Below are positions 32,214 through 64,000 of a stretch of DNA of 64,000 nt, in pieces (position 1 is the first letter of the stretch; each line of letters opens with the position of its first letter). The notes under the pieces are model-generated. The model did not search any database, had not been told where the DNA came from, and saw only the letters and a program-made list of their open reading frames with translations. The position numbers and the translations under genes are program-made. The stretch is from Escherichia coli (GTDB lineage Bacteria; Pseudomonadota; Gammaproteobacteria; Enterobacterales; Enterobacteriaceae), in the NCBI RefSeq assembly GCF_003019035.1, contig NZ_CP027447.1, one strand, 5' to 3'.

Positions 32214-32243
32214 CTATTCACTCATAAAAATGAGTTCAGAGAG

Positions 32244-32273
32244 CCGCAAGATTTTTAATTTTGCGGTTTTTTT
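32244..32273 (+). terminator. Terminator after aspV
   Basis: CCGCAAGATTTTTAATTTTGCGG hairpin followed by TTTTTTT. Confidence 0.5.
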
Positions 32274-32540
32274 GTATTTGAATTCCACCATTTCTCTGTT
32301 CAATGATTTTACTCTGGCGTAAGTGCGTGATTCTCGCTTGTTGTCTCATTCATTAAAATTCAATAATGATATCGAACCATTCAGCTTAAATATATTTCCA
32401 GAGAATAAATTTATATTGATTAAATGAATGTATATTTCAAATTGATTTTGTTTGTTATTATTTAAGTGAGGTATATAATTAGAGTCCGTTATCAATGCTA
32501 AATATTCTAATCATTATGACAGGCGAGGGAGTGTCCAATT

Positions 32541-33326
32541 ATGAATTCAAAAAAGCTTTGTTGCATATGTGTGTTATTCTCGCTGCTTGCAGGATGTGCC
32601 TCTGAATCTTCTATTGATGAAAAGAAGAAAAAAGCTCAAGTCACACAAAGTAATATTAATAAAAACACTCCCCAGCAACTGACAGACAAAGATTTATTCG
32701 GTAATGAAACCACTCTGGCCGTATCCGAGGAGGATATTCAAGCTGCGCTTGATGGAAATGAGTTCCGCGTTCCCCTTAATTCTCCTGTAATACTTGTTCA
32801 ATCCGGCAACCGCGCACCGGAAACCATTATGCAGGAGGAGATGCGAAAATATTATACTGTTTCCACATTCTCTGGTATCCCGGACAGGCAAAAGCCTCTG
32901 ACTTGTAACAAAAACAAAGATAAAAATGAGAACGAGGATGTTGCCAGTGCTGAAAATATGAACTGGATGCAGGCATTGCGTTTTGTGGCTGCGAAAGGGC
33001 ATCAGAAAGCGATTATTGTTTACCATGATACGTTGCAGACAGGAAAATATGACACTGCACTGAAATCAACAGTATGGTCCGACTATAAAAATGACAAACT
33101 CACTGACGCTATCTCCCTGCGCTACCTGGTACGTTTCACGCTGGTGGATGTGGCAACAGGTGAGTGGGCTACCTGGTCGCCGGTGAATTATGAATATAAA
33201 GTGCTTCCACCATTGCCCGACAAGAATGAAGCCAGTACGACTGATATGACAGAGCAGCAAATCATGCAACTTAAGCAAAAGACCTATAAAGCGATGGTAA
33301 AAGATTTGGTTAACCGCTATCAATAA
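32541..33326 (+). CDS. yafT: Lipoprotein YafT-like, unknown function
   Basis: 261-aa ORF, lipobox LLAGCAS, AT-rich gene preceded by a very AT-rich 330-bp region. Confidence 0.75.
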
Positions 33327-33462
33327 TAAATTATATCTGCCGCCAGGAATTTCTGGCGGAAATAATACAAAATTCTTTGCATAAGAAATTTTTCTTGACA
33401 AAGACAGTGCAAGAAAGGACATGGAATCCGGAGTTAAAAACTGTTTGTTTTAGAATATTTAA

Positions 33463-33942
33463 TTATTTAACTGCTGAATCTTCCTTGCGAGAAATATATC
33501 CATTATTACATTTCATGCCATTTTTAATATAGATTGCTCCTGGGAAAATTCCCGTATTATTACCGCAGGGGTGATAATTAGTATTGACATATCCTGTGAC
33601 AAAAGGAGCTATTAAAGGTGCTATTACGATAGCTATTAGTAAAAATATAAGAGTTAGCTGTATTGTTATGTCTGTGGCGAAATTGACTACCTTCGTTTTT
33701 TTGATTAAGAATGATTTTATTATCGTAAGTAAAATTACATGAATATTTAAAAAGGAAAACGACATGAAACCGAAGCACAGAATCAACATTCTCCAATCAT
33801 AAAATATTTCCGTGGAGCATTTTATTATTGAATATAGAGGTTTAACTCCGGTAAAAAACAAAGAAGCATTGAATGCAGGGAAAAATAATATGGCCATAAA
33901 AAACATCGAAAGAAACTCTTTTAATTTAACATGTAAACGCAT
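33463..33942 (-). CDS. ykfM: Small polytopic inner-membrane protein (YkfM-like); candidate immunity protein
   Basis: 159-aa ORF, very hydrophobic with several predicted TM segments, AT-rich; 9 nt downstream of the 309-aa ORF. Confidence 0.55.
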   Translation of the reverse strand: MRLHVKLKEFLSMFFMAILFFPAFNASLFFTGVKPLYSIIKCSTEIFYDWRMLILCFGFMSFSFLNIHVILLTIIKSFLIKKTKVVNFATDITIQLTLIFLLIAIVIAPLIAPFVTGYVNTNYHPCGNNTGIFPGAIYIKNGMKCNNGYISRKEDSAVK

Positions 33943-33951
33943 GGTTAATCC

Positions 33952-34881
33952 TCATATCACGGGTGGAGTGTTAAGAACATACATAAATGGAGTCATGTTT
34001 TCCCTTTTCCATTTATCAAGTTCCTGTTGCCGTTTTAGTCCATCTCTAATTGCATATTTTAATTTTTCTGATAAATGGCATTGAGCATCGATTTCATTTA
34101 AAACAACTGTACACACTATCCCTGTCAGTAAAATTGCTCCTCCGACAAGAATTACTGGAAAGCCAAAGCTAACACAGGCAAAAGAAGCCAGGCTTCCAAT
34201 AGCGGTTGCAACACCACCGGCTATAACTGCTTTGGCCACATCCATTGAAAAATCGCCAAGAAAATTAACCAGATCTCGCTCTGAACTCATAATAAATTCT
34301 ATGGTTCTCCAGGCTACTGAAAACCAGATACAGAACTTAACTCCTTTTATTGATTCAGATAAAGCTCCTCGCCAGCCAATAGCGAGTTCCAGAACTTGAG
34401 GCGCTCGTGAAGAGAAAATATATTTACCGAGCTTTTCTAAAAGCCAGGGGCTGGATGTTGTGATTTTTATATATTTCTCTCCAAGTATTTCAAAGTAACT
34501 TGCTTTTGTATACTTTAAGGCATTAAGGTTAAATATAATTTTCCCATTGTCATCAAACTCAGTCATTAATTTACCCGCGTTAACTAACCAGGCGAGTGTA
34601 TCTTTTATACCTGAAGGATGTGTAGTGATAAAATGAATGTAATCAAATGATGTTATTGGGCTGAGTATTTTTTTTGCAACATCAAGTGTCAAGAGAATAA
34701 CATGATGAGTGTTCTGATGCCTTAACTCATCAATGAGTGGGACGTCGTTAAGATAAGGGTGCTGAGGTACTAGCTGGTTTATCGGCTGAGCCCCCCGAAG
34801 AATGTCACCCACATAATCAGCCCACTGTGCATTCTGTGTGTTGTTGTTATTCCTTAAACCAGCCATTTTATCTCTCCGCAA
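33952..34881 (-). CDS. Membrane-anchored hypothetical protein (apparent full-length YafU-like); candidate Hcp-associated effector
   Basis: 309-aa ORF with soluble N-terminal region and C-terminal Gly/Ala-rich hydrophobic hairpin (VAKAVIAGGVATAIGSLASFACVSFGFPVILVGGAILLTGIVCTVVL); 28 nt downstream of the Hcp paralog. Confidence 0.55.
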   Translation of the reverse strand: MRRDKMAGLRNNNNTQNAQWADYVGDILRGAQPINQLVPQHPYLNDVPLIDELRHQNTHHVILLTLDVAKKILSPITSFDYIHFITTHPSGIKDTLAWLVNAGKLMTEFDDNGKIIFNLNALKYTKASYFEILGEKYIKITTSSPWLLEKLGKYIFSSRAPQVLELAIGWRGALSESIKGVKFCIWFSVAWRTIEFIMSSERDLVNFLGDFSMDVAKAVIAGGVATAIGSLASFACVSFGFPVILVGGAILLTGIVCTVVLNEIDAQCHLSEKLKYAIRDGLKRQQELDKWKRENMTPFMYVLNTPPVI

Positions 34882-34909
34882 TAGTAATTTATTATGTTAT
34901 TACAGTAAG

Positions 34910-35392
34910 TTACTGTACACGATCCTGCCATTTACTCATTGCATTCGTACCGGCTAACGTATGCTCCCAGGAAATATCTTCATAAATAAAGGCAATTCTC
35001 TCCTGTGGTTCCAGTTCTTTTTCCAGGACAGCATGCGGTGTGACAAAATCAATACTTGATATTCGGGCTTTTGACAGATTTATTTTATAATAAGGCTGGT
35101 AAATACCCGCTTTACTGGTTCGGTAGAGTATAAATTCACATAATGCCATTTTTTCATTGTCACTAAGTGCTTTTGCCAGCAATGGTGAGGATTTATCAAC
35201 CGGTTTGGTGATAATTAATTCATGATGATTGACATTTTGACTTCTTGAGATGGAATGCATTAACGCATAAACCATGATCTGATCTTTATGTTCTGGCTGC
35301 GCTTTGTTTCCGACAGAATCAAGCGTTGAGCAACCTGCTGAAATTAGCCCTTGTGTCTCTCCACTCAAAGATAAATAACTTATATTTGCCAT
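34910..35392 (-). CDS. Hcp-family protein (divergent TssD paralog)
   Basis: 160-aa ORF; YLSLSGETQGLISAGCSTLDSVGN aligns with canonical Hcp YISITGQTQGNITAGAFTADSVGN at 55478; similar C-terminal ...SWEH... motif. Confidence 0.75.
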   Translation of the reverse strand: MANISYLSLSGETQGLISAGCSTLDSVGNKAQPEHKDQIMVYALMHSISRSQNVNHHELIITKPVDKSSPLLAKALSDNEKMALCEFILYRTSKAGIYQPYYKINLSKARISSIDFVTPHAVLEKELEPQERIAFIYEDISWEHTLAGTNAMSKWQDRVQ

Positions 35393-35415: not shown

Positions 35416-36769
35416 TTATTTTTCGGCCGTGGTACCGGTTGCCGCCTCTGGCATGACGTTATTCTTCAGCAGCAGCCAGCGGCTTAACACGCCTTCGAGT
35501 CGCTCATTAATTTGTTTTTCCAGCGCATCTGTATTCTGCTTCTGCGCACGGGCATCCTGGTACTGCGTCAACAGAGACTCAACGGGTGTTTCCTGCCCCA
35601 GTCCCCGCTCCGCCTGCCAGATGACATTTTTGATATAGGAAAGGGTTAGTCCCTCTTTCTCGCGCTGCATCACTAGATCTGCAAAAGCATGTAAGTCCTG
35701 GCGGGTCTGCAACCAGCCACGCAACTGCGGGCTACTCTGTGCGCGGGTTTTGAGTGCCTCATTCCATTGTGTCGAGGCCTGTTGCTGTTGCAGGCTTTCC
35801 GGCCAGCGACTGTCGGCAACACGCATCATCTGCATCCCGGTTTCCAGCGGCTGTACCGGGGAGGTATCAAGAAGTTGTTGCAGCCTGCGCTCATAGTTTT
35901 CGAGTTCAGGTGAGGCCATCCACACCGTTGCTGCGCCCTGAGCGGTGTCGTTAACCTGTAACAGTTGCTGCTGCACCGGATAGACCTGCCACCACCACAA
36001 TGCTGAGGCGACAGCCACTGAACAGGCGATCCCTGCGATAAACCCTCTTACCATACTGCCTTGCTTTATCACACTGGCCTGTGGGGGATTCTCTGTCAGA
36101 CTGCGCACTTCCACTTTCATCTCAGGCAGGCCAGGCAGGGGAGGCACTACCGCTTCTGGTGTGGAAGATGCCTGTGTTTCCGGGGCATAAATCAGCGTTC
36201 TGACCGTGGTCTGTGCGGCGTTCTCAGTGTTACTCTTCAGCTGGGGTTCAAGCCGTTTACGCGTGTTCTGCATAAAATAGAGCAGATTCTCCACGCGCGG
36301 AACGCGCTTCAGTTCCACCTGCTGGAGCTTATCGCAGATAAGCTGCAATGCCCGCTCTGTGCGGTAGATCAGTGGTAGGTCGGATTCCGCAAAGGAGATT
36401 TGCTGACGCAGAATATTGCCGGTTCGGGAGTTAAACCAGTCCAGCATTTCAGTACGCGCCGGGCCGCCCTGCGGCCAGAACTTATCCCAGTCGTGGCTTA
36501 CCATTGCCGCCAGCAGTTCCGCACCTTCGCAGAATCCCGCCAGTCCCTGTGTCCGTGTCCGGGCAAGCGTATAGTAGGTGGCGGTGTGTAAATCCACACC
36601 GTTGGCTTTAAAAATCGCCAGCGCCAGCGACTCCACCAGTTTCCAGTTCAGCTCAGGCTGTGACGGGTGGCTGGCTTTGTTTATTTCCTCGCGGATGGCG
36701 CTGAATTCCGGCAGCCCGCGCGGGTCACTGCCGGTAACGATAGTTTGTGTCAGTACGTTACTATTCATC
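35416..36769 (-). CDS. T6SS-associated ImpA_N-domain membrane protein (VasL/TagA-like)
   Basis: ORF 35416-36858; likely start MNSNVLTQ at 36769 behind a GGAGG RBS; N-terminal TssA-like region (DPRGLPEFSAIREEINKASHPSQPELNWKLV...) plus one TM segment (GFIAGIACSVAVASALWWW); last gene of a V. cholerae-like cluster order. Confidence 0.7.
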
Positions 36770-36778: not shown

Positions 36779-39700
36779 TCAGTACAGTGTGTCTGACAGA
36801 CCAAACTGGCTGAACAACCCACCGCTGAACGGGTTATCTTCCGTGTCGGTATGCACACGGTAGGTCATCGCGCCACCGTCCACGCTAAAGCGCACGGTAA
36901 AGTTGCCATCCTGTACTCCGGTCAGTTGTCCGGCCCCGAACAGGCGGAACTGCGCCCACGGCCCGCTGAAGCTGATACTGCGCGGCGCGTTGCCGCTGGT
37001 GCCGATGAGCGTCAGCTTACTTTCGTTGCCTTCGCGCATGTTGTTAGGCCAGACCAGATGGGCGGTATAGTTACGGCCCTGGCTGTAATCGACTAACTGA
37101 CCGTCAAGGTTCAGTACACTGCGGCGTTTATTGCCTGAAAGCGATACCGTTTCCACGGCAAAGGATGTTCCCAGACCGTTCTGTTTGCTGAAGAAGATGT
37201 CACGGATTTTCTGCGCAGTTTCCAGTTGCGCAATAATATCTTCGCGAATAATGACGTTGTTATCGCCGTCTTCCAGGCTCAGATCATTGTCGATAAACAG
37301 TTTCAGGTTCTGCTGGTAGAAGGTATCCAGTATGCCATCCGGTTTAAAGAATCGTTCGAAGGCATCCAGTGAGGCATCCTGTGCAGAACGTGGATTAAAC
37401 GGATAGTTATTTGCCAGTTGCTCGTTAAACGGTTTCACCACGCTGTCGCGCCAGTCCACTTCCATATAGTGAACGGCTTCCACCATCACCACATGCCAGG
37501 CCTGGTCAGCCAGCCTGCCTACCCAGCGGTTGAGCGGAGCAGGCAGTGTTTTTGCCATCTGGCGGGTGGCGAATATTGGATCGCTGCTGTTCTGATCAAG
37601 CCTTAACTGCACGGCTTTCAGCGCCGATTTCCCTGGTACAGGCGCGTTCTGGATTGCCAGCAGGTAGCGGTGTAACTCGGTGAGCTGCTGGTATACGGCC
37701 TGCATCGTGCTTTCTTTGTCTTTCTGTACTGTCAGGGTACTGTTTTCCGGGGCGAATTCATGCCCGAGGCGGGTAAGTAACTGGTAATCCGGCTCTGCCA
37801 GGGCCTCATCCCGCTCTTTGGCAGAGAGTTTTTCAGAAAAGACTCCTGGCTGTGTGTTGTCACGCAGCACGGTCAGCGCCCGCTGCAAAGGCTGGTCGCC
37901 GCTGATAACCTGCTCCAGAGTGCCAGTCAGTTGTCCAATGGACTCAAAATTGCGGATATTGAGATTGTCCATCCCGGCCCGCCAGGTGGCGGTGTAGTCG
38001 CTGATATACTGCTCGGTCAACTGGCGCTGAATTTCCGCGCGGTCGGCGTCACTGTATTTCACGCTGCGGGTGAGGTTGAGTACCCAGGAATCCATCGCCG
38101 TCAGTTCAACCAGTTCATCGCGCTGTTTTACAAAATAGCTTTGCAGGCCGTAACGGGTAAGAAACTGTGGAACAACCAGTTTGTTATCATCGGCAGATGT
38201 AAACACCTGGTCAAAGGTTGGCCCTACCTGGTCACGCAGATTGAGGTCAGCAGGAAGAACGCCCAGCGCCCGCGTTTTCAGGCTCTGATAAACCCGCTGG
38301 TAGACAGGCAGTTTGCTCAGTTCTTTCTGTGCTGATACCACGGGCTTGTCATATGGCGTCCAGCGGCTGATGGCATCACCGTCGCCCGCCTGACGCTCTG
38401 CATGCCAGTCAGTATGAGCCAGCGCGTAGTCAAGATGGGACATCAGTTGTGTCTGGATATCGCGCTGTCCGTGGAACTTTTCGCTCCAGCGTTTTGCCAT
38501 ATACTGCTTCACCACCTCATTGTTACGTCCGCTTTTGTCCTCCAGCATTCGCATCACGCGCAGCACCGCGAGTTTTTCTTCACTCTCCGGCGGCGCGGCA
38601 TTCATCGCTTTGACCAGCCCGTTAAACAGCGAGGGCAGGTAACGCTGCTCCAGAAGTTGCAGATAGGTCTGTTCCACATATGGCCCGATACGTCTCCCCT
38701 GGTACAGGCCCATATCGGCCAGACGGCTGCGCTCGCCCCAGTCGCCATAGGCCAGTGTTGCATCGCGTACCGGGTTCAGCAGTGGCAGTTGCAGGTTGCC
38801 AAAGTCATCTTCCCCCTGCGGAGGCGGCACGTCCATAAAGGCTTTGGCCTGCTTAAGCACGGTGATGCCGGACTGATAGTTACCGTTGTAATAGTGATGC
38901 CAGCCGGTGATGAGCAGCAGTGCCGCCACGCCGCCTGTGGCAGAGAAAACCGTCAGGCGGCGACGGGAACGCATCAGCCAGGCGCTGCTCTCTGTTGCCA
39001 GATTAGGCTCTGCGAGTAATGCCTGCGGGAACAGGCTGCGGGTGAAATAAGGCGCGGTGTCCACCAGAGGCCAGGACGCCAGTGGGTTATTGCCCAGTCG
39101 GTACTGGCGGGCAGCAGACTGGGTGAATATATCATCCATCTGTCCACGCTGAAGCGAAGAGGTGAGATAGACACCACGCAGCATCACGTTCATATTTTCG
39201 CCGTCAAGCAGACCCTCAAGCAGTGACACCAGCGGCTCACGGCTTCCCTGCATCTGGCGGGAAAAACTGAATAAAGACGCGCGGGTGTGAGTCTGGGTGA
39301 CCATCAGATCCGGCAACGCCAGATTCATTCGATCCACCCATGTCTGCCAGAAAGCATTCAACTCTGTTCGCCAGTCATCATTTTCATGAGCACGGCGGGT
39401 GAACGTAACACCCAGAATCGCATCGCGATCCTGTCTGTTCAGTGACTGAAACAGGGCGGCAAAACCCTGCAATAAATCAAGCCGGGTCAGTACCACGTAA
39501 ACCGGTAACTGGCAATGAAGATGCTGGCGTATATCCTGTAAGCGGCTGCGCAGCGTCTGTAACAGATGCTCGCGGCGGCGTTTGTCTGCGGTCAGCAGAT
39601 CGGGTAAATCGAGTGTCAGAATAATCCCGTTCAGCGGCTGGCGCGCGCGCTTTTCCTTCAGCCAGCCGAGGGCATGTTCCCACAGACGGCGATGCAGGAT

Positions 39701-40303
39701 ATCCGCATCAGCGGGAGCGCAGAGTGTGCCGTCGATATCAAAGATCACCGCCTGTTTACCGACATGGGGCGTGAGGTACAGGCGTTGTTCTGCGCCGCGC
39801 GCGCCCTCCGGGGCATAAATAATGTCTGACGGAAACCCCTCGCGCAGCAGTGTCGTTTTGCCACTGCCCACAGGACCGATGACCATATACCACGGCAACT
39901 GCCACAGGAAACGGCGGTTGTCGAGATGGCGTTGCAGGCGCAGCAGCCAGCGGTCGAGGTAACGCTGCTGGGCGTTCAGTTCCACACTGAGCGCATCAAC
40001 GGCTTCCTCGCGCTGTTGCTTTTGCATTTTTTCAAGCTGTTGCAGGCGCTTCATTACCCGGACGGTAAGCCACACCAGGGCAATAATCCCCCACGCCGCC
40101 GTTGCCAGCCAGCGGTTCGCCAGTGGTTTGAGCCACTGCTCTTCATACAGCGTCCATGTCGGGCCTTTCCACCAGATCCATACCAGCAGGAAAATCCACG
40201 CCAGTATCAGCAGCCAGAATGCAGAAACTTTAAACCGGGGCATCGCCGGGCGCAGGGCTGATTTGAGTTCGCTGAATAGTCGGGGTGTTGGTAATCTGAA
40301 CAC
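36779..40303 (-). CDS. tssM: T6SS membrane-complex protein TssM (IcmF)
   Basis: 1174-aa ORF, N-terminal TM segments, Walker A GPVGSGKTT. Confidence 0.93.
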   Translation of the reverse strand: MFRLPTPRLFSELKSALRPAMPRFKVSAFWLLILAWIFLLVWIWWKGPTWTLYEEQWLKPLANRWLATAAWGIIALVWLTVRVMKRLQQLEKMQKQQREEAVDALSVELNAQQRYLDRWLLRLQRHLDNRRFLWQLPWYMVIGPVGSGKTTLLREGFPSDIIYAPEGARGAEQRLYLTPHVGKQAVIFDIDGTLCAPADADILHRRLWEHALGWLKEKRARQPLNGIILTLDLPDLLTADKRRREHLLQTLRSRLQDIRQHLHCQLPVYVVLTRLDLLQGFAALFQSLNRQDRDAILGVTFTRRAHENDDWRTELNAFWQTWVDRMNLALPDLMVTQTHTRASLFSFSRQMQGSREPLVSLLEGLLDGENMNVMLRGVYLTSSLQRGQMDDIFTQSAARQYRLGNNPLASWPLVDTAPYFTRSLFPQALLAEPNLATESSAWLMRSRRRLTVFSATGGVAALLLITGWHHYYNGNYQSGITVLKQAKAFMDVPPPQGEDDFGNLQLPLLNPVRDATLAYGDWGERSRLADMGLYQGRRIGPYVEQTYLQLLEQRYLPSLFNGLVKAMNAAPPESEEKLAVLRVMRMLEDKSGRNNEVVKQYMAKRWSEKFHGQRDIQTQLMSHLDYALAHTDWHAERQAGDGDAISRWTPYDKPVVSAQKELSKLPVYQRVYQSLKTRALGVLPADLNLRDQVGPTFDQVFTSADDNKLVVPQFLTRYGLQSYFVKQRDELVELTAMDSWVLNLTRSVKYSDADRAEIQRQLTEQYISDYTATWRAGMDNLNIRNFESIGQLTGTLEQVISGDQPLQRALTVLRDNTQPGVFSEKLSAKERDEALAEPDYQLLTRLGHEFAPENSTLTVQKDKESTMQAVYQQLTELHRYLLAIQNAPVPGKSALKAVQLRLDQNSSDPIFATRQMAKTLPAPLNRWVGRLADQAWHVVMVEAVHYMEVDWRDSVVKPFNEQLANNYPFNPRSAQDASLDAFERFFKPDGILDTFYQQNLKLFIDNDLSLEDGDNNVIIREDIIAQLETAQKIRDIFFSKQNGLGTSFAVETVSLSGNKRRSVLNLDGQLVDYSQGRNYTAHLVWPNNMREGNESKLTLIGTSGNAPRSISFSGPWAQFRLFGAGQLTGVQDGNFTVRFSVDGGAMTYRVHTDTEDNPFSGGLFSQFGLSDTLY

Positions 40304-45241: not shown

Positions 45242-45249
45242 AAACGTCC

Positions 45250-54781: not shown

Positions 54782-55165
54782 AAAAGTGATCCGTCATGTT
54801 ATCTCGTACAGGCCATGAACACGGCATATTTGTACCGAAAAAAAATATCGGCAATGCCGCCCTAATGGCGGTGAAAATAAAATCACCACTCCTTCATCAC
54901 CCCGCATTCTACGCTTCAAAATAAATAAGAAAAGGACTTTTTATCGATCGTAAAGAGGGGTATTCTGCAAGCGTTAAATAGATTGTGTGAACCTGTGCAA
55001 TTCGCGCCAGGTGTATTATGGCAATAATTTAAATATAGAGCTTTTATGTAACTTATTGAATTATATAATAATTTCATTAAACATAAGCTAATCTGATGAT
55101 TGCTTGTTTATATATTTGTTTTGTGATTGATTAAGTGGGTATTTTTAAGGAATATCTCAAAAATT

Positions 55166-55186
55166 ATCAAAATGATAATTCAGAAA
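55166..55186. promoter_or_regulatory. Weak Fur-box-like sequence in the tssB/hcp divergent control region
   Basis: AATGATAAT core matches the central 9 nt of the Fur consensus GATAATGATAATCATTATC; about 11/19 overall. Confidence 0.25.
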
Positions 55187-55477
55187 GGATAAATACAATA
55201 TTTATTCATGATTCAGCTTTGGCCATTTTATGGAGGCAATACGGACTTTGAACAGTTGGGTATGGTTATCCAGATATATATTATTAACTTATTGCTGAAT
55301 AAGAGATTTAATGATTTTAAAAATAGTTTTTACGACAACCGTAAATTCTAGCTCGGTTTGTATGTAAAAAATACTGAAAAATGATGCGGTTCCGTGAAGT
55401 GAGCTGCATCTGCCTGTCTGGGATTAACGGCAGGTCATTGTAAGTAGTAATTAACCACGTTAACAAGGAGTTTACAA

Positions 55478-55996
55478 ATGCCAACACCGTGTTATATCTC
55501 CATCACTGGTCAGACCCAGGGAAATATTACTGCAGGTGCATTTACCGCTGATTCTGTCGGCAACATCTATGTGCAGGGGCACGAAGACGAGATGCTGGTG
55601 CAGGAATTCCTGCATAACGTTACTGTCCCGACCGATCCTCAGTCCGGCCAGCCTGCGGGTCAGCGTGCTCACAAGCCGTTCATTTTTACCGTGGCGCTGA
55701 ACAAAGCTGTTCCGCTGATGTACAACGCACTGGCCTCCGGCGAAATGCTGCCAACCACTGAACTTCACTGGTGGCGTACCTCTGTGGAAGGCAAACAGGA
55801 GCATTATTTCACCACCCGCCTGACCGATTCGACGATTGTCGATATGAAACTGCATATGCCGCATTGCCAGGATCCGGCGAAACGCGAGTTCACCCAGTTG
55901 CTCGAAGTTTCACTGGCCTACCGCAAAATAGAGTGGGAACACGTCAAATCTGGCACCTCCGGTGCCGACGACTGGCGCGCACCGCTGGAAGCATAA
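55478..55996 (+). CDS. hcp: T6SS inner tube protein Hcp (TssD)
   Basis: 172-aa ORF MPTPCYISITGQTQGNITAGAFTADSVGNIYVQGHEDE... Confidence 0.93.
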   Translation: MPTPCYISITGQTQGNITAGAFTADSVGNIYVQGHEDEMLVQEFLHNVTVPTDPQSGQPAGQRAHKPFIFTVALNKAVPLMYNALASGEMLPTTELHWWRTSVEGKQEHYFTTRLTDSTIVDMKLHMPHCQDPAKREFTQLLEVSLAYRKIEWEHVKSGTSGADDWRAPLEA

Positions 55997-56007
55997 GTTA
56001 AGCCAAC

Positions 56008-56205: not shown

Positions 56206-58314
56206 ATGTCAACCGGATTACGTTTCACGCTGGAAGTGGACGGCCTGCCACCGGACGCGTTTGCGGTGGTCTCCTTTCATCTGAACCAGTCACTCTCTTC
56301 GCTCTTTTCCCTCGATCTCTCTCTGGTCAGCCAGCAGTTTCTCTCCCTTGAATTTGCGCAGGTGCTGGACAAAATGGCCTACCTGACGGTATGGCAGGGC
56401 GATGACGTACAGCGCCGGGTGAAAGGTGTGGTGACCTGGTTTGAACTGGGGGAGAACGACAAAAACCAGATGCTGTACAGCATGAAGGTGTGCCCACCGC
56501 TGTGGCGCACAGGGCTGCGCCAGAACTTCCGTATCTTCCAGAATGAGGACATCGAAAGCATACTCGCGACGATCCTGAAAGAAAACGGGGTGACCGAGTG
56601 GAGTCCGCTGTTCAGCGAGCCGCATCCTTCCCGTGAGTTTTGTGTCCAGTACGGCGAAACCGATTACGATTTCCTGTGCCGGATGGCGGCGGAGGAAGGC
56701 ATCTTCTTTTATGAGGAGCACGCGCAAAAAAGTACCGACCAGAGCCTGGTCCTGTGCGACACCGTGCGTTATCTGCCGGAGTCCTTTGAGATCCCCTGGA
56801 ATCCGAACACCCGTACCGAGGTGAGCACCCTATGCATCAGCCAGTTCCTCTACAGCGCACAAATCCGCCCATCTTCCGTGGTGACCAAAGACTACACCTT
56901 TAAACGACCCGGCTGGGCAGGGCGTTTTGATCAGGAAGGCCAGCACCAGGATTACCAGCGCACACAGTATGAAGTGTATGACTACCCCGGACGTTTCAAG
57001 GGTGCCCACGGGCAGAACTTTGCCTGCTGGCAGATGGATGGCTGGCGAAACAACGCAGAAGTGGCGCGCGGAACAAGCCGTTCGCCGGAGATATGGCCGG
57101 GACGGCGAATTGCGCTGACGGGGCATCCGCAGGCGAACCTGAACCGGGAATGGCAGGTGGTGGCAAGTGAACTGCACGGCGAGCAGCCGCAGGCGGTGCC
57201 GGGACGCAGTGGTTCAGGTACCACGCTGAATAACCACTTTGCGGTAATACCGGCAGACAGAACATGGCGGCCACAGCCGTTGCTGAAACCGCTGGTGGAC
57301 GGCCCGCAGAGCGCCGTCGTGACGGGACCGGCAGGAGAAGAAATCTTCTGTGATGAACATGGCCGCGTGCGGGTGAAATTTAACTGGGACCGTTATAACC
57401 CGTCAAACCAGGACAGTTCATGCTGGATCCGTGTGGCACAGGCGTGGGCAGGCACCGGGTTTGGTAACCTGGCGATACCGCGTGTGGGTCAGGAGGTCAT
57501 TGTGGACTTCCTCAACGGCGATCCGGACCAGCCGATTATTATGGGGCGCACCTACCACCAGGAAAACCGCACCCCCGGCAGCCTGCCGGGAACAAAGACG
57601 CAAATGACCATTCGTTCAAAAACCTATAAGGGCAGCGGGTTTAATGAACTGAAGTTTGACGATGCGACAGGGAAAGAACAGGTCTACATCCACGCGCAGA
57701 AGAACATGAACACCGAGGTGCTGAATAACCGCACCACAGATGTGATAAACAACCATGCTGAGACCATCGGCAACAATCAGGTGATTGCGGTTACCAACAA
57801 TCAGATACAGACGGTGGGCGTTAACCAGATAGAGACGGTGGGCAGTAACCAGATCATTAAAGTGGGCTCTGTTCAGGTGGAAACGATTGGACTTGTTCGT
57901 GCGCTGACTGTGGGCGTGGCGTATCAGACGACGGTAGGTGGCATTATGAACACCTCGGTGGCCCTGATGCAGTCCTCGCAGATCGGTTTGCATAAATCGT
58001 TGATGGTCGGGCTGGGTTATGACGTCAAAGTCGGAAATAACGTTACCTTCACCGTTGGTAAAACGAAAAAGGATGATACCGGGCAGACCGCGATTTACTC
58101 CGCCGGTGAGCATCTGGAACTCTGCTGTGGTAAGGCAAGGCTGGTGCTGACTAAGGACGGACAAATTTTTCTCAACGGCACAAAAATTCATTTGCAGGGT
58201 AAGGAGCAGGTTAATGGTGACTCACTGTTGATTAACTGGAACTGTGCAGCCTCGAAATCCCCACCGAAGACCCCTGATGAAAAGCAGGATACGCCGGATA
58301 TGAGAGAGTACTGA
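56206..58314 (+). CDS. vgrG: T6SS spike protein VgrG (TssI)
   Basis: 702-aa ORF, N-terminus MSTGLRFTLEVDGLPPDAFAVVSFHLNQSLSSLFSLDLSLVSQQ, beta-helix repeat region (TVGVNQIETVGSNQIIKVGSVQVETIG). Confidence 0.93.
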   Translation: MSTGLRFTLEVDGLPPDAFAVVSFHLNQSLSSLFSLDLSLVSQQFLSLEFAQVLDKMAYLTVWQGDDVQRRVKGVVTWFELGENDKNQMLYSMKVCPPLWRTGLRQNFRIFQNEDIESILATILKENGVTEWSPLFSEPHPSREFCVQYGETDYDFLCRMAAEEGIFFYEEHAQKSTDQSLVLCDTVRYLPESFEIPWNPNTRTEVSTLCISQFLYSAQIRPSSVVTKDYTFKRPGWAGRFDQEGQHQDYQRTQYEVYDYPGRFKGAHGQNFACWQMDGWRNNAEVARGTSRSPEIWPGRRIALTGHPQANLNREWQVVASELHGEQPQAVPGRSGSGTTLNNHFAVIPADRTWRPQPLLKPLVDGPQSAVVTGPAGEEIFCDEHGRVRVKFNWDRYNPSNQDSSCWIRVAQAWAGTGFGNLAIPRVGQEVIVDFLNGDPDQPIIMGRTYHQENRTPGSLPGTKTQMTIRSKTYKGSGFNELKFDDATGKEQVYIHAQKNMNTEVLNNRTTDVINNHAETIGNNQVIAVTNNQIQTVGVNQIETVGSNQIIKVGSVQVETIGLVRALTVGVAYQTTVGGIMNTSVALMQSSQIGLHKSLMVGLGYDVKVGNNVTFTVGKTKKDDTGQTAIYSAGEHLELCCGKARLVLTKDGQIFLNGTKIHLQGKEQVNGDSLLINWNCAASKSPPKTPDEKQDTPDMREY

Positions 58315-58380
58315 TCCCGTACCTGTTCAGTATTCAGTAACAAACAAGCATTAAAAATAAACAGAAGAAGGAATTGAATC

Positions 58381-61300
58381 ATGAGCGGAAAACCGGCGGC
58401 GCGTCAGGGAGATATGACCCAGTATGGCGGTCCCATTGTCCAGGGTTCGGCAGGTGTAAGAATTGGCGCGCCCACCGGCGTGGCCTGTTCAGTGTGCCCG
58501 GGCGGAGTCACTTCCGGCAACCCGGTAAACCCGCTGCTGGGAGCGAAGGTGCTGCCCGGTGAGACGGATGTTGCGCTGCCCGGTCCGCTGCCGTTCATTC
58601 TCTCCCGCACCTACAGCAGCTACCGGACCCGGACGCCTGCACCGGTGGGCGTTTTCGGCCCCGGCTGGAAAGCGCCTTCTGATATCCGCTTACAGCTACG
58701 TGATGACGGACTGATACTCAACGACAACGGCGGGCGGAGCATTCACTTTGAGCCGCTGCTGCCGGGGGAGGCGGTGTACAGCCGCAGCGAGTCAATGTGG
58801 CTGGTGCGTGGCGGTAAGGCAACGCAGCCGGACGGCCACACGCTGGCACGGCTGTGGGCGTCGCTGCCGCCGGATATCCGGTTAAGCCCGCATCTTTACC
58901 TGGCGACCAACAGCGCACAGGGGCCGTGGTGGATACTCGGCTGGTCAGAGCGGGTGCCGGGTACTGAGGACGTACTGCCAGCGCCGCTGCCGCCGTACCG
59001 GGTGCTTACCGGGCTGGCGGACCGCTTCGGGCAGACGCTGACGTACCGGCGTGAGGCCGCCGGTGACCTGGCCGGGGAAATCACCGGCGTGACGGACGGT
59101 GCCGGGCGGAAGTTCCGTCTGGTGCTGACCACACAGGCGCAGCGGGCGGAAGAGGCCCGTAAACAGCACACCGCTTCCTTATCTTCCCCTGACACCCCCC
59201 GCCCTCTTTCAGACTCAGCTTTCCCCGACACACTGCCCGGTACGGAATACGGCCCCGACAGGGGTATCCGCCTTTCGGCGGTGTGGCTGATGCACGACCC
59301 GGCATACCCGGAAAGCCTGCCCGGTGCGCCACTGGCGCGGTACACGTATACGGAAGCCGGTGAACTGCTGGCGGTATATGACCGCAGCAATACGCAGGTG
59401 CGCGCTTTCACGTATGACGTGCAGCACCCGGGCCGGATGGTGGGGCACCGTTATGCGGGAAGGCCGGAGATGCGCTACCGCTACGACAATACCGGGCGGG
59501 TGGTGGAGCAGCTGAACCCGGCAGGGTTAAGCTATCGCTATCTTTATGAGCAGGACCGCATCACCATCACGGACAGCCTGAACCGGCGAGAGGTGCTGCA
59601 TACAGAAGGCGGGGCCGGGCTGAAGCGGGTGGTGAAAAAAGAACTGGCGGACGGCAGCGTCACGCACAGCGGGTATGACGCGGCAGGAAGGCTCACGGCA
59701 CAGACGGACGCGGCGGGACGGCAGACAGAGTACGGTCTGAATGTGGTGTCAGGCGATATCACGGACATCACCACGCCGGACGGGCGGGAGACGAAATTTT
59801 ACTATAACGACGGGAACCAGGTGACGGCAGTGGTGTCCCCGGACGGGCTGGAGAGCCGCCGGGCGTATGATGAGCGGGACAGGCTGGTAACGGAGACATC
59901 GCGCAGTGGGGACGTCATCCGGTATGCTTATGATAATCCGCACAGTGAATTACCGGCCACGACAACAGATGCGACGGGCAGCACCCGGCAGATGACCTGG
60001 AGCCGCTACGGGCAGTTGCTGGCGTTCACCGACTGCTCGGGCTACCAGACCCGCTATGAGTACGACCGCTTCGGCCAGATGACGGCGGTCCACCGCGAGG
60101 AAGGCATCAGCCTTTACCGCCGCTATGACAACCGTGGCCGGTTAACCTCGGTGAAAGACGCACAGGCCCGTGAAACGCAGTATGAGTACAACGCCGCAGG
60201 CGACCTGACTGCCGTTATCACCCCGGATGGCAACCGGAGTGAGACACAGTACGATGGGTGGGGAAAGGCCATCAGCACCACGCAGGGCGGGCTGACGCGC
60301 AGTATGGAGTACGATGCTGCCGGACGTATCACCACGCTGACTAACGAGAACGGCAGCCACAGCGACTTTAGTTACGATGCGCTGGACCGCCTGATACAGC
60401 AGGGCGGCTTTGACGGGCGGACGCAACGTTATCATTATGACCTGACCGGAAAACTCACGCAGAGTGAAGATGAGGGGCTTGTCATCCTCTGGTACTACGA
60501 TGAATCGGACCGTATTACTCACCGCACGGTAAACGGTGAACCGGCAGAACAGTGGCGGTATGACGGCCACGGCTGGCTGAGAGAAATCAGCCACCTGAGC
60601 GAAGGCCACCGTGTTGCCGTCCACTATGGCTATGATAATAAAGGCCGCCTGACCAGTGAGCGCCAGACGGTGCATCACCCGGAGACGGGAGAGCTGCTCT
60701 GGCAGCATGAGACCGGACATGCGTACAACGAACAGGGGCTGGCAAACCGCGTCACGCCGGACAGTCTGCCGCCGGTGGAGTGGCTGACCTATGGTAGCGG
60801 TTATCTGGCAGGCATGAAGCTGGGCGGGACGCCGCTGCTGGAGTTCACGCGCGACCGCCTGCACCGTGAGACGGTGCGCAGCTTCGGCAGCATGGCAGGC
60901 AGTAATGCCGCATACGAACTGACCAGCACATACACCCCTGCAGGCCAGTTACAGAGTCAGCACCTGAACAGCCTGGTGTATGACCGTGACTACGGGTGGA
61001 ATGACAACGGAGACCTGGTGCGCATCAGCGGCCCGCGACAGACGCGGGAATACGGCTACAGCGCCACGGGCAGGCTGGAGAGTGTGCGCACCCTCGCACC
61101 GGACCTGGACATCCGCATCCCGTATGCCACGGACCCGGCGGGCAACCGGCTGCCGGACCCGGAGCTGCACCCGGACAGTACACTCACAGTGTGGCCGGAT
61201 AACCGCATCGCGGAGGATGCGCACTATGTCTACCGCCACGATGAATACGGCAGGCTGACGGAGAAGACGGACCGCATCCCGGCGGGTGTGATACGGACGG

Positions 61301-61989
61301 ACGACGAGCGGACCCACCACTACCACTACGACAGCCAGCACCGCCTGGTGTTCTACACGCGGATACAGCATGGCGAGCCACTGGTCGAGAGCCGCTACGT
61401 CTACGACCCGCAGGGACGGCGAATGGCGAAACGGGTATGGCGGCGGGAGCGTGACCTGACGGGGTGGATGTCGCTGTCGCGTAAACCGGAGGTGACGTGG
61501 TACGGCTGGGACGGCGACCACCTGACGACGGTGCAGACCGACAGCACACGTATCCAGACGGTATACGAGCCGGGAAGCTTCACACCGCTCATCCGCATCG
61601 AAACAGACAACGGCGAGCGGGAGAAAACGCAGCGGCGGAGCCTGGCGGAGAAGCTCCAGCAGGAAGGGAGCGAGGACGGACACGGTGTGGTGTTCCCGGC
61701 TGAACTGGTGAGGATGCTGGACAGGCTGGAGGAAGAAATCCGGGCAGACCGCGTGAGCGGTGAAAGCCGGACGTGGCTTGCACAGTGCGGGCTGGCGGTG
61801 GAGCAACTGGAAAAACAGGTGGAGCCGGAATACACGCCGGAACGCACACTGCATCTTTACCACTGCGACCATCGGGGACTGCCGCTGGCGCTTATCAGCG
61901 AAGACGGCAATACGGTGTGGAGCGCGGAGTATGATGAATGGGGAAACCTGCTTAATGAGGAGAACCCGCATCATGTGTATCAGTCATAG
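58381..61989 (+). CDS. rhs: PAAR-domain Rhs protein, core region, terminated by in-frame TAG
   Basis: 1202-aa ORF; N-terminal PAAR-like region ([42 protein letters not shown]) then YD/RHS repeats; ends ...[11 protein letters not shown] at TAG 61987-61989. Confidence 0.9.
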
Positions 61990-62598
61990 CGTCTGCCGGG
62001 GCAGCAGCATGATGAGGAGTCGGGGCTGTATTATAACCGGAACCGGTACTACAATCCGTTGCTGGGGAGGTATATTACCCAGGATCCAATTGGGCTGGAG
62101 GGGGGATGGAACCTGTATAATTACCCACTGAATCCGATAATAAGGATGGATCCTTTGGGTTTGTATAATTTATATCAATTATTATATGATGTTTGGCATG
62201 ATGATTCATATGGAACATCATCAATTGATATTACTGGCAGTGGAGATCTAATATCATTAGGTGGTCATGCAGGACTTGGCGTTGCGTTTGCTAAAAAGAA
62301 AGGTGAAATGTTATCTGATATTTGTATTTATGCTACAGCATGCGGACATGCAGGAATTGGTGGTGGGATAAATGCGGCTATCACATATTCTGAGACCAAG
62401 TCTTTACCTACATCGGGAGTCAGCAATTCAGTAGGTGTAACGGTTGGCGGCGGAGTTGGGGGGCATTTTGCGTATACTTATGTAGTGGATGTTGATAATC
62501 CAGAATCATCGACAGAATCTGTTGGTATCGGTGCAGGTGTTGACGCTTCAGTTATGACTCTGGCTTGTAGAACGTGGCAAGAATGCTGGGTCAATTAA
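61990..62598 (+). other. Rhs C-terminal region in frame with the core: conserved junction (DPxGL motif) plus glycine-rich candidate toxin domain
   Basis: Same frame as 58381 ORF; [58 protein letters not shown] then an AT-rich, Gly-rich tail; track ORF 62059 begins at TTG, no ATG. Confidence 0.6.
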
Positions 62599-62609
62599 CA
62601 GGAGGAAAT

Positions 62610-63005
62610 ATGAAAGAATATATATTTTTAGTTTTATTTTTATTGTGTGGTTGTTCTCCAGTGGACATAGAGCCAGCTAGACAAGAAGTTAATATCTTTC
62701 GTGGTTTATATCAGACAGGAAAATACAGTGATATATATAAAATCACTTCAAGTGATTTTCAGACTGCCACATCTGAAAAAAAATTTATCGACATAATGAG
62801 CGAAGCAAAAGGAAAAGATCTTGGGACTTATAAAAAATCAACCCTTAAAACTGAAAAAATCACTCGCGGATTATTTTCAAACGATGAAATTACATTGATA
62901 TATTTCTCAGAATATTCAAAAAGAATTGTCCAAGAGGTTTTTGTGTTTAATGTTGAAGACAAAAAAGTAAAATTAAAAGGTTATAGGTATGATTCGATTA
63001 ATTAA
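62610..63005 (+). CDS. Putative lipoprotein, candidate Rhs immunity protein
   Basis: ORF 62574-63005; ATG at 62610 behind AGGAGG; MKEYIFLVLFLLCGCSP lipoprotein signal; AT-rich; immediately after the Rhs C-terminal domain. Confidence 0.6.
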   Translation: MKEYIFLVLFLLCGCSPVDIEPARQEVNIFRGLYQTGKYSDIYKITSSDFQTATSEKKFIDIMSEAKGKDLGTYKKSTLKTEKITRGLFSNDEITLIYFSEYSKRIVQEVFVFNVEDKKVKLKGYRYDSIN

Positions 63006-63297
63006 ATTTTTTGATGATGACTTCAATTAGTAGAACATGTATTTTTCGATAAAAGCACCGATGACTTTTTCATGAAGTTCTACAGAGCGCGAGAAACAGA
63101 TGGTTCTGCGAGTCAGACGTTTGATTCAGGTTCTCAGGGGCAGATTCAGGGACAGGGAAAGATCATCAGAAGTTCACTTTTTGCACTAAATAATTCGCAT
63201 TTTATGTTTAAAAATTGAGATATTTCTCATTACCTGAAACTGTTTTTTTATTGCTTATACATGATCAAATACTCCTTACATAATTAAGGAGAACAAA

Positions 63298-64000
63298 ATG
63301 GAACTTAAAAAATTGATGGAACATATTTCTGTTATCCCCGATTACAGACAAGCCTGGAAAGTGGAACATAAATTATCGGATATTCTACTGTTGACTATTT
63401 GTGCCGTTATTTCGGGTGCAGAAGGCTGGGAAGATATAGAGGATTTTGGGGAAACACATCTCGATTTTTTGAAGCAATATGGTGATTTTGATAATGGTAT
63501 TCCTGTTCACGATACCATTGCCAGAGTTGTATCCTGTATCAGTCCTGCAAAATTTCACGAGTGCTTTATTAACTGGATGCGTGACTGCCATTCTTCAGAT
63601 GATAAAGACGTCATCGCAATTGATGGAAAAACACTCCGGCATTCTTATGACAAGAGTCGCCGCAGGGGAGCGATTCATGTCATTAGTGCGTTCTCAACAA
63701 TGCACAGTCTGGTCATCGGACAGATCAGGACGGATGAGAAATCCAATGAGATTACAGCTATCCCTGAACTTCTTAACATGGTGGATATTAAAGGAAAAAT
63801 CATCACAACTGATGCGATGGGTTGCCAGAAAGATATAGCAGAGAAGATACAAAAACAGGGCGGTGATTATTTATTCGCTGTAAAAGGAAATCAGGGTCGG
63901 CTAAATAAAGCCTTTGAGGAAAAATTCCCACTGAAAGAATTAAATAATCCAGAACATGACAGTTACGCAATTAGTGAAAAGAGTCACGGCAGAGAAGAAA
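63298..64000 (+). mobile_element. ISAs1-family transposase (H-repeat-associated protein), 5' part; continues beyond window
   Basis: ATG at 63298 behind AAGGAG; [58 protein letters not shown]... matches E. coli H-rpt proteins; typical position downstream of Rhs elements. Confidence 0.85.

Follow-up and report, generated by a model that had tools for sequence, protein, structure and literature searches.

T6SS islands at the tRNA gene aspV, a site reported to be a hot spot for islands gained by horizontal transfer, are known from several E. coli strains. PAI I of LF82 occupies this site and, according to the table in the LF82 paper, 3 of its 29 ORFs are held by MG1655. In EAEC 042 the cluster Ec042-0210-0226 lies at aspV and includes an FHA gene; the authors of that work reported no evidence of its expression there. 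The 'T6SS-2' of ST410 clade A, named by the scheme of Journet and Cascales, contains an extra tssA and tssD, an FHA gene, and rhs after vgrG. The islands of LF82, 042 and ST410 form a class with two tssD genes, VasL as a second tssA-like gene, clpV, FHA, and vgrG followed by rhs. The 37-kb aspV island of EDL933, called T6SS2 in PMC5874247, secretes KatN, is repressed by H-NS and has been described with three hcp genes (PMC5363993). In Salmonella, SPI-6 and SPI-20 are T6SS clusters at the same tRNA hot spot that lack obvious flanking direct repeats, and the Salmonella aspV island paper places them in different T6SS phylogenetic groups.

The window analysed here, a stretch of 64,000 nucleotides of E. 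coli DNA, almost certainly carries this known chromosomal aspV-linked island (T6SS-2), of which K-12 has the deleted form. Published accounts already cover the island (LF82 PAI I, EAEC 042, ST410, EDL933), which is not new. The window shares the architecture of LF82 PAI I, the FHA gene of the 042 cluster and, from ST410, the extra tssA and tssD and the rhs after vgrG; it differs from these islands only at the strain level, for example by a nonsense codon in its Rhs gene. Its core is the same as that of EDL933, but it has two hcp genes and other cargo. The identical order dnaQ–yafT–DUF1240–...–tme–hcp–vasL–tssM–tssA–vasI–clpV is found in one S. enterica assembly, whereas SPI-6 of S. Typhimurium, a different species, is a mosaic of greater size (47 kb) that includes fimbrial operons. 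The sequence-only reading had proposed alignment to T6SS-positive E. coli genomes: the window proved near-identical to E. coli SCU-301, whose PGAP gene names agree, and the T6SS core matched an O157:H7 genome along its entire length at 96.2% identity.

We observed conserved core synteny up to aspV and AT-rich DNA directly after it, as that reading had described. Window positions 1-32213 are collinear with K-12 at 97.6-98.8% identity. In three successive 1-kb bins following aspV, GC content is 0.40, 0.35 and 0.39, compared with approximately 0.50-0.52 before the tRNA gene; it then climbs to 0.53-0.61 over the T6SS genes and falls to 0.38 at 62-64 kb. aspV itself (tRNA-Asp(GTC), 32137..32213, plus strand) was called by ARAGORN and Rfam (RF00005, 67.7 bits), is annotated as aspV at the homologous K-12 position, and is the left anchor of the island. 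A hairpin with a 16-pair stem followed by a T-run (32238..32272, plus strand), found by consensus scan, is terminator-like as a consensus match only and may close the aspV transcription unit. Next comes yafT (32541..33326, plus strand), which encodes a 261-aa lipoprotein with the lipobox LLAGC and had no NCBIfam match. This gene is annotated and kept in K-12, its region being 98.4% identical there, and the Salmonella yafT ortholog adjoining dnaQ carries the YafT family PF25851.

All 13 core components, TssA-M, had been read from the sequence, and each of the 13 families was recovered above its curated NCBIfam cut-off with near full-length matches. We called T6SS families with NCBIfam profiles at these cut-offs, except VasL, which was called by Pfam. 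From tssB to ykfM, 18 co-directional genes are separated by gaps of at most 108 nt. tssB, encoding the small sheath subunit (54281..54781, TIGR03358, 171 bits against a cut-off of 97), is the first gene of this leftward 21-kb array, all on the minus strand. It is followed by a conserved 74-aa ORF (54022..54246), annotated in SCU-301 as hypothetical protein WP_000123970.1 and without an NCBIfam match, and then by tssC for the large sheath subunit (52496..53971, TIGR03355, 702.9 bits against 271.5). The baseplate genes tssE (52076..52489, TIGR03357, 116.6 against 53), tssF (50222..52072, TIGR03359, 560.8 against 260) and tssG (49176..50258, TIGR03347, 347.7 against 143) come next, followed by tagH, for an FHA-domain accessory protein (47871..49151, TIGR03354, 341.5 against 120), the lipoprotein gene tssJ (47350..47874, TIGR03352, 133.7 against 31.6), the baseplate gene tssK (46016..47347, TIGR03353, 454 against 100) and tssL (DotU; 45250..46011, TIGR03349, 216 against 90). 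tssH/clpV encodes an intact ATPase of 920 aa (42482..45244, TIGR03345, 1119 against 885); the 'frameshift' recorded for this gene in SCU-301 is the loss of one base at a CCTGG site (window position 43386), which the window does not share. The accessory gene vasI (41742..42485, TIGR03360, 253.6 against 124), tssA (40322..41737, TIGR03362, 500 against 230) and tssM, for the IcmF-like membrane complex subunit (36779..40213, TIGR03348, 945 against 388, full length), precede a gene for a 450-aa VasL-domain accessory protein (35416..36768). This second, distant tssA-like gene matched Pfam VasL (PF12486, E=6e-23) and ImpA_N (E=3e-19), and matched the TssA NCBIfam models only below cut-off. The FHA, VasI-like and VasL-like genes were therefore also as described. 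At the end of the main operon, in the 'Hcp2A' position, lies the first hcp/tssD copy (34910..35392, 160 aa, TIGR03344, 203 bits against 58.9).

The divergent intergenic region between tssB and the second hcp (54782..55477) is AT-rich, with a GC content of 0.43 for 55001-56000. It presumably holds promoters and an H-NS target, although promoter-like matches in this region were no commoner than in shuffled sequence. H-NS repression of T6SS2 has been reported for APEC and EHEC (PMC5874247), and by extension from this literature H-NS may regulate the T6SS of the present strain.

At the left end of the array we found a full-length yafU (33952..34866, minus strand, WP_000908052.1) encoding 304 aa with C-terminal TM segments at approximately aa 213-261. 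The supplement of Fridman 2020 (PMC7046647) lists this protein with a Tme domain (residues 122-277, E=3.7e-36), places an Hcp gene 43 bp upstream of it, and gives YkfM, of 159 aa and 3 TM segments, as the protein encoded 9 bp downstream. The validated members of the Tme/Tmi family are Tme1 and Tme2 of Vibrio parahaemolyticus, and the E. coli YafU entry is a computational listing. Homologs of yafU in Salmonella and Rahnella likewise lie beside hcp and upstream of DUF1240 genes. Full-length YafU is thus a candidate membrane-disrupting T6SS effector of the Tme family. ykfM (33463..33942, minus strand, annotated YkfM, WP_001236645.1) encodes a membrane protein of 159 aa, for which a hydropathy scan gave 3-4 TM segments, and is kept in K-12. 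YkfM had no Pfam match, DUF1240 included, but shares 51% identity (E=1e-47) with the DUF1240 protein that occupies the corresponding position in Salmonella. Elsewhere, DUF1240 (Tmi) genes come after Tme homologs, as ykfM comes after yafU, and ykfM is likely the DUF1240-like Tmi immunity gene of Tme.

The second effector module lies to the right of the intergenic region, on the plus strand. It starts with hcp/tssD copy 2 in the 'Hcp2B' position (55478..55996, 172 aa, TIGR03344, 207 bits against 58.9), which by the operon logic of PMC5874247 heads an hcp-vgrG-effector operon. vgrG/tssI (56206..58314, TIGR03361, 626 bits against a cut-off of 186) is intact at 702 aa, the length of the intact VgrG of JNE23-011. 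Downstream, an Rhs element core gene with a C-terminal toxin tip (58381..62598) is interrupted. Its product matched NF041261 (RHS_core) at 2591 bits against a cut-off of 2000 over model positions 1-1202, and the ORF after the stop matched model positions 1228-1261. The core protein is approximately 94% identical to its nearest intact relatives. The sequence-only reading had proposed a PAAR-Rhs toxin; the Rhs core stood, whereas PAAR was below threshold in Pfam, the N-terminus being a 47-residue PAAR-like segment of Tse5 type. In Tse5 (RhsP1) of Pseudomonas aeruginosa (PDB 8CP6), a PAAR-like N-terminus of approximately 47 residues likewise precedes a PVNPxLGxK cleavage-site motif, although residue 47 is Asn in the present Rhs and not Lys. 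Also shared are the N-terminal DUF6531 plug, which we detected with Pfam, then a YD-repeat shell and, at the C-terminal end, an aspartyl-protease plug (DPXGX18-19DPXG) and a toxin tip of approximately 140-150 aa, but sequence similarity to Tse5 was detected for residues 48-146 only (E=6e-16) and the present gene is interrupted before the C-terminal plug. Because the toxin tip has no recognisable family, the likeness to Tse5 is no basis for assigning pore-forming activity.

The interruption is an in-frame TAG at 61987-61989, codon 1203 (Y1203*), where SCU-301 and JNE23-011 have TAC. It sits just before the putative autoprotease plug, marked by the motif DPIGX18DPLG at aa 1235-1260 downstream of the stop, and the toxin tip. 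JNE23-011 and SC423 encode intact Rhs proteins of 1402 aa. Since the gene is interrupted at codon 1203, this strain is predicted not to produce the toxin as a fusion. One possible explanation is that the TAG is a base-calling or assembly error and that the Rhs toxin is really intact at 1405 aa. The codon is a lone C-to-G difference from SCU-301, the nearest relative, no second disruption is present in the 4.2-kb gene, and Rhs genes recur within a genome (median of 8 matching places), a situation in which assembly or polishing can go wrong. We nevertheless consider an error unlikely, as polished assemblies contain fewer substitution errors than indels and the window looks cleaner than SCU-301, being free of its CCWGG and homopolymer indels, with tssH and vgrG intact. 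A genuine nonsense codon is the reading that we retain. Immediately downstream, dsORF-e4 (62610..63005, plus strand, annotated 'RHS element protein dsORF-e4') encodes a 131-aa predicted lipoprotein with the lipobox LLCGC and only weak Pfam DUF matches; from its position, it is presumed to be the Rhs immunity gene. Cargo and IS content after vgrG vary by strain; in JNE23-011, for instance, ISAs1 is present three times, together with an orphan Rhs fragment.

Two IS-derived features lie towards the right end of the window. An IS1 transposase fragment (63027..63125, minus strand; coordinates carried over from locus L001 with an offset of 35011) is present as partial IS1 in the same place in SCU-301, JNE23-011 and SC423. 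The IS-family transposase that had been noted is of the ISAs1 family (H-repeat, ISEc1-like; 63298..64000, plus strand, NF033564, 282 bits against a cut-off of 70), and its gene is cut by the window end. In SCU-301, the annotated ISEc1 ends approximately 434 bp past the window and is followed by yafV. From SCU-301, whose ISAs1 copy differs from that of the window in its last 250 bp, we infer that the right boundary sought beyond the window lies approximately 430-480 bp past its end. The island had been called complete and intact: the T6SS is complete, whereas the Rhs gene is not intact and the right edge falls some 0.45 kb outside the window.

Comparison with K-12 MG1655 bore out the statement that only yafT, ykfM, a short yafU and an H-repeat pseudogene remain at this tRNA: between aspV and yafV, K-12 contains only yafT, ykfM and pseudogenes of yafU and yafF, so its gene content is not that of the window. 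Alignment ends on the left at window position 34308, in yafU, of which only the 3′ 357 nt are left in K-12. The right breakpoint is inside the ISAs1 gene, approximately 150 bp past the window end (L001 29143), and yafF is the 3′ remnant of this transposase gene. The two breakpoints are joined at a 5-bp microhomology, GTTCT. K-12 thus carries a deletion of approximately 29.8 kb from the middle of tme (yafU) to the inside of the ISAs1 transposase gene. Only two edges of the same DNA are kept in K-12, which is therefore the deleted form, as had been suggested; as a refinement, the first approximately 2.1 kb after aspV (yafT, ykfM and the 3′ part of yafU) are still in K-12. The K-12 junction was found in 372 genomes. 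In NADC 5570/86-24, of the O157:H7 lineage, the junction query matched in its ISAs1 part only, not its yafU part.

The adjoining tRNA, the atypical GC content and the reputation of aspV as a hot spot could instead suggest a recent integrase-mediated insertion at an att site, with K-12 as the ancestral empty site. However, no integrase was present among ORFs of at least 80 aa, PGAP-named genes or NCBIfam-tested ORFs, and a direct repeat of the tRNA 3′ end, which that reading had proposed to look for, was absent: no copy occurs in the island or in the 20 kb on its right. The island is not of the integrase/att type, because both features are missing over these spans. Moreover, K-12 is not empty, its retained ends meet at the microhomology inside two truncated genes, and the Salmonella genome has the same aspV–yafT–...–hcp–vasL–tssM order. 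An insertion of this kind is highly improbable, and deletion from K-12 remains our reading.

We surveyed 5,426 complete E. coli genomes. Of these, 2,029 (~37%) carried 80% or more of the T6SS core, mostly at 95-99% identity, and 3,541 carried some of it; the cluster has often undergone nested deletion, leaving remnants that cover 60%, 47%, 26%, 17% and 10%. Together with the published parallel loss of T6SS in MDR lineages (ST410 work), these counts and the rhs TAG would fit a decaying, effectively disarmed system, in which the Rhs nonsense codon is the first step of a stepwise loss and the weapon no longer works. We regard this as quite improbable for the present locus. Each of the 13 core genes, like the accessory genes, is full length and scores above curated cut-offs, the Tme/YkfM module is intact, and a truncated Rhs is the loss of one effector, not of the apparatus. 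The apparatus genes are all intact here, and the sole interruption noted is the stop in the Rhs gene.

From its protein families and the literature, an intact apparatus of this kind would build a contractile injection machine from a TssJLM membrane complex, a TssEFGK baseplate and a TssBC sheath, completed by TssA, the Hcp tube, the VgrG spike and the recycling ATPase ClpV, with TagH (FHA), VasI and VasL as accessory proteins. At the left end, hcp–tme(yafU)–ykfM would supply a membrane-disrupting Tme with its Tmi-like immunity protein; at the right end, hcp–vgrG–rhs–dsORF-e4 would encode an Rhs cage, its polymorphic C-terminal toxin and an immunity protein. The machine may thus deliver effectors into neighbouring bacteria, while immunity proteins would protect sister cells.

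We identified the tRNA-Asp(GTC) gene at 32137-32213 as aspV (ARAGORN, with agreement from Rfam; the name follows the K-12 annotation), and a second tRNA-Asp gene at 23914-23990, which closes an rRNA operon, is aspU (rrnH) by the same annotation. Positions 1-32213 of the window were collinear with E. coli K-12 MG1655 at 97.6-98.8% identity, except for two small indels. At the yafD/yafE junction (26952-27148), about 195 bp of the window is missing from K-12. Short similar sequences (TTTGGCGCTGC and TTTGTCGCTGC) lie at the two ends of this segment, the window YafE is longer, beginning MTTQSHHDHVEKQF..., and the K-12 gene seems to have lost its N-terminal part. Between nlpE and yaeF (11143-11162), about 19 bp in the window stands against about 85 bp in K-12, and we can only guess that this length difference is a REP-type element polymorphism. 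Directly after aspV come a terminator-like hairpin with a T-run (32238-32272) and the AT-rich shift that the sequence-only reading had described: GC content was about 0.50-0.52 in the bins preceding aspV and 0.40, 0.35 and 0.39 in the next three 1-kb bins. It then reached 0.53-0.61 over 36-54 kb and fell to 0.38 at 62-64 kb. An Rfam search of 32000-64000 at gathering thresholds returned the tRNA as its sole match. Promoter-like sites after aspV and in the tssB/hcp intergenic region were as frequent as expected from shuffled sequence, and the aspV hairpin was the only notable element.

We scored the predicted products of the region against NCBIfam, with gene starts as PGAP had annotated them in the near-identical E. 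coli SCU-301 (NZ_CP051751), the closest RefSeq record. TssA, B, C, E, F, G, H/ClpV, I/VgrG, J, K, L and M and two Hcp/TssD proteins all exceeded the curated cut-offs, so that each of the 13 core components named from the sequence alone was recovered intact. The profile matches were essentially full-length, the ORFs were uninterrupted and their lengths equalled those of the annotated proteins of relatives. The cluster is a canonical T6SS with all 13 core components. The FHA, VasI-like and VasL-like accessory genes proposed from sequence were likewise recovered, TagH (FHA) and VasI above curated NCBIfam cut-offs and VasL by Pfam. The last of these, a 450-aa protein encoded beside tssM, fell below the cut-offs of the TssA models and matched Pfam VasL (E=6e-23) and ImpA_N, which identifies it with the 'second, distantly related tssA' of the LF82 island. 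Eighteen genes run leftward from tssB (54781) to ykfM (33463) with gaps of at most 108 nt, and hcp, vgrG, rhs and dsORF-e4 (a 131-aa predicted lipoprotein gene at 62610-63005, plus strand) run rightward out of an AT-rich 696-bp intergenic region (54782-55477). Between tssB and tssC, on the minus strand at 54022-54246, lies a conserved 74-aa ORF (WP_000123970.1) with no NCBIfam match.

This island is the E. coli T6SS-2 of the Journet and Cascales scheme, located at aspV between dnaQ and yafV. A 35-kb T6SS island, PAI I, was described at aspV in LF82, with two tssD, clpV, vgrG and two distant tssA genes, and MG1655 holds 3 of its 29 ORFs. The third T6SS of EAEC 042, also at aspV and with an FHA gene, exceeds 95% identity with its counterparts in UMN026, 536, UTI89, APEC O1, S88, ED1a and 55989. 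The locus of ST410 clade A has the same parts and was classed as T6SS-2, as was the UMN026 cluster, and the aspV island of EDL933 (PMC5363993) was named T6SS2 and reported to be repressed by H-NS (PMC5874247). The island in the window shares with the ST410 and LF82 descriptions VasL (the second tssA-like gene), two tssD, the FHA gene and an rhs gene downstream of vgrG. We rejected the label 'T6SS-1' for this cluster, as papers using the Journet and Cascales scheme name this architecture T6SS-2. The 19.4-kb core was 96.2% identical over 100% of its length to an O157:H7 genome, an indirect link to the EDL933 cluster named T6SS2. Across 5,426 complete E. coli genomes, 3,541 held some of this core and 2,029 held at least 80% of it; the others formed a ladder of nested remnants. 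The island was already known, and the sequence-only interpretation was right in substance. Its aspV site, gene content and near-absence from K-12 have been in the literature since 2010 (the genome papers on LF82 and EAEC 042), and its uneven loss among E. coli lineages has also been studied; as a discovery it carries little weight. Our analysis adds the K-12 breakpoints at base level, a nonsense codon in rhs, likely sequencing artefacts in SCU-301, the lack of an integrase or attachment repeat, and a link from two K-12 y-genes, ykfM and the pseudogene yafU, to an effector/immunity family of T6SSs already in print.

The MG1655 locus is annotated with aspV, yafT, ykfM, yafU (pseudogene), yafF (pseudogene) and yafV, exactly the content given in the sequence-only reading. 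Alignment of K-12 to the window stopped at 34308, within a gene encoding a 304-aa protein (33952-34866, minus strand), the 3' third of which is K-12 yafU. It restarted inside the ISAs1 transposase gene of SCU-301, about 150 bp past the equivalent of the window end, and yafF is the 3' remnant of this transposase gene. The K-12 junction reads ...ATGGTTCT|GCTGATT..., and the microhomology GTTCT is found at both parental sites. Both alignment breaks fall inside genes and are joined at GTTCT, so that K-12 has lost about 29.8 kb by deletion and its locus does not resemble an empty attachment site. The proposal that the window holds the form of the island that K-12 has lost is thus right in substance, and the breakpoints can be mapped. 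The K-12-type junction was present in 372 of the 5,426 genomes.

An integrase or recombinase was not found between 32214 and 64000, whether among ORFs of at least 80 aa, PGAP names or NCBIfam names; the mobility genes in this interval were the ISAs1 transposase gene and an IS1 fragment. The sequence-only reading had also proposed looking for a direct repeat of the tRNA 3' end. In the window, a 24-nt pattern allowing up to 3 mismatches matched aspU and aspV alone, and it had no match in the SCU-301 locus, which runs from the equivalent of window position 34999 to some 20 kb past the window end. Neither the island nor the 20 kb that follow it on the right thus showed such a repeat. A paper on Salmonella T6SSs made the same remark, of no flanking repeat, on the aspV-proximal SPI-20 and called aspV a hot spot. 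One S. enterica assembly had the same gene order (dnaQ, yafT ... tme, hcp, vasL, tssM, tssA, vasI, clpV), and because of this shared order the arrangement is either old or has passed between genomes by homologous recombination in the conserved flanks.

On its left the island is bordered by dnaQ-aspV. At the other end, the IS-family transposase that had been noticed proved to be of the ISAs1 family (H-repeat): the gene starts at 63298, is cut by the window end, and scored 282 bits with NF033564 (cut-off 70) across the 238 residues that the window encodes. The SCU-301 copy extends about 434 bp further than the window, and yafV, ivy and fadE come after it. From this order we infer an island of about 32.2 kb with its right edge just outside the window, an estimate based on a relative and not on the strain's own sequence. 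The preceding 29 kb or so is nearly identical to SCU-301, but 12 substitutions relative to that record lie at 63753-63972, within the ISAs1 gene and the final 250 bp of the window. They point to another ISAs1 copy, or to gene conversion between the several that the genome contains.

In the SCU-301 record (NZ_CP051751.1), tssH, vgrG and rhs are marked as frameshifted. In most cases where SCU-301 departs from the window in these three genes (43386 and 56726-61641), the change is a single-base indel or substitution that falls at a CCWGG (Dcm) site or in a homopolymer. Such a pattern is a known signature of nanopore base-calling error. Because the differences cluster at these sites, the frameshift calls are probably sequencing artefacts. 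Both tssH (920 aa) and vgrG (702 aa) are intact in the window, with vgrG of the same length as in the relative JNE23-011. A tssH frameshift in the window was rejected, as the 1-base deletion, at a CCTGG site, belongs to SCU-301.

A frameshift in rhs, as annotated in SCU-301, was also rejected for the window, which has an in-frame nonsense codon instead. The RHS_core model NF041261 (2591 bits, cut-off 2000) matched the ORF at 58381-61989 with its positions 1-1202 and the following ORF with its positions 1228-1261, and the two ORFs share one frame and are split by a TAG at 61987-61989 (codon 1203). This codon is TAC (Tyr) in SCU-301 and JNE23-011, and JNE23-011 and another relative, SC423, encode an uninterrupted Rhs of 1402 aa. 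Because the TAG precedes both the DPIGX18DPLG autoprotease motif (aa 1235-1260 when translation is read through the stop) and the toxin tip, the strain as sequenced would make a truncated Rhs cage that lacks the C-terminal plug and the toxin. Either the G at 61989 is a genuine mutation that disarms the effector, or the source assembly is wrong at this one base.

The same gene had been read as a PAAR-Rhs toxin. The Rhs shell was borne out and is accompanied by an N-terminal plug matching DUF6531 in Pfam (E=1e-18), but the ORF is interrupted and the PAAR part stayed below threshold. Pfam PAAR_motif gave only sub-threshold fragments at residues 2-29 (E=0.14 and 1.4), and the PAAR structures 4JIV and 9RCE gave weak matches (E=0.13-0.69). 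In a search against solved structures, Rhs residues 48-146 matched the shell of Tse5, a P. aeruginosa Rhs effector (E=6e-16). The Tse5 shell starts at its cleavage site, PVNPMLGSK, and the window Rhs is arranged likewise, with PVNPLLGAK coming after 47 residues. These 47 residues resemble Tse5-NT, which its authors named 'PAAR-like', and a defensible label for the Rhs N terminus would be 'PAAR-like, Tse5-type' and not a canonical PAAR domain.

The C-terminal tip of Rhs matched no recognisable toxin family in Pfam. Tse5-like pore formation, suggested by the Gly-rich composition of the tip, found no support. The dsORF-e4 product is lipoprotein-like with only marginal Pfam matches to DUFs, and from the position of its gene we infer a role in immunity. 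As a set, the tip, dsORF-e4 and the IS1 fragment (61900-63125) recurred at about 97.7% identity in 1,317 genomes, often elsewhere on the chromosome at a locus that has a separate vgrG-rhs pair (for example, in NZ_LR778145.1, locus L008), which indicates that Rhs tips or modules are exchanged between loci. Such shuffling is usual for Rhs tips and modules.

The left end of the island carries the gene that is truncated in K-12 as yafU. The full-length 304-aa YafU gene follows hcp after 43 nt and precedes ykfM by 9 nt; together yafU and ykfM occupy 33463-34866 (minus strand), which corresponds to 4258-5085 of the K-12 locus L003. Its product had no sequence match in Pfam, NCBIfam or the PDB and has a hydrophobic C-terminal region; the ykfM product is a 159-aa protein with 3-4 transmembrane segments. 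The YafU family is small, with 19 clusters in 5.8 billion proteins, and its Salmonella and Rahnella homologues are encoded beside hcp with DUF1240 proteins next. In Fridman et al. 2020 (PMC7046647), Tmi, the proteins that give immunity to the membrane-disrupting Tme effectors, were defined as DUF1240 and DUF1240-like. WP_000908052.1, the accession of this YafU, is entered in their supplement with a Tme domain (residues 122-277, E=3.7e-36), together with Hcp, encoded 43 bp upstream of it, and WP_001236645.1 (YkfM), encoded 9 bp downstream. We took the domain call from the authors' table; the window and SCU-301 do not differ in this stretch. On the basis of this listing and its Hcp and YkfM neighbours, yafU is predicted to be a truncated tme gene. 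YkfM itself had no Pfam match, shared 51% identity (E=1e-47) with the Salmonella protein at the same position, which has a precomputed PF06836 assignment, and was weakly similar (E=6e-5) to a Rahnella DUF1240 protein. We propose that ykfM is probably the immunity gene of Tme, orphaned in K-12. The Tme family assignment is published, and its link to the K-12 names yafU and ykfM was not found in the literature searched: a search on ykfM and T6SS returned no paper linking them, and one on yafU returned unrelated papers only.

A Rahnella bruchi contig (QZWI01000007.1; locus L004, 10001-11937) has an orphan tme-like gene and a DUF1240 gene next to an orphan hcp in convergent orientation. The 20-kb locus contains no T6SS core genes, and the arrangement looks like a stand-alone Hcp-linked effector/immunity islet.

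Whether ykfM still works in K-12 is a further step, to which we give a little under an even chance: it may be a functional Tmi-type immunity gene left behind by the deletion of the T6SS island. If so, this would explain why an intact ykfM sits beside a truncated yafU, and ykfM would shield K-12, and the roughly 7% of sequenced strains with the same deletion, from Tme-armed E. coli neighbours.
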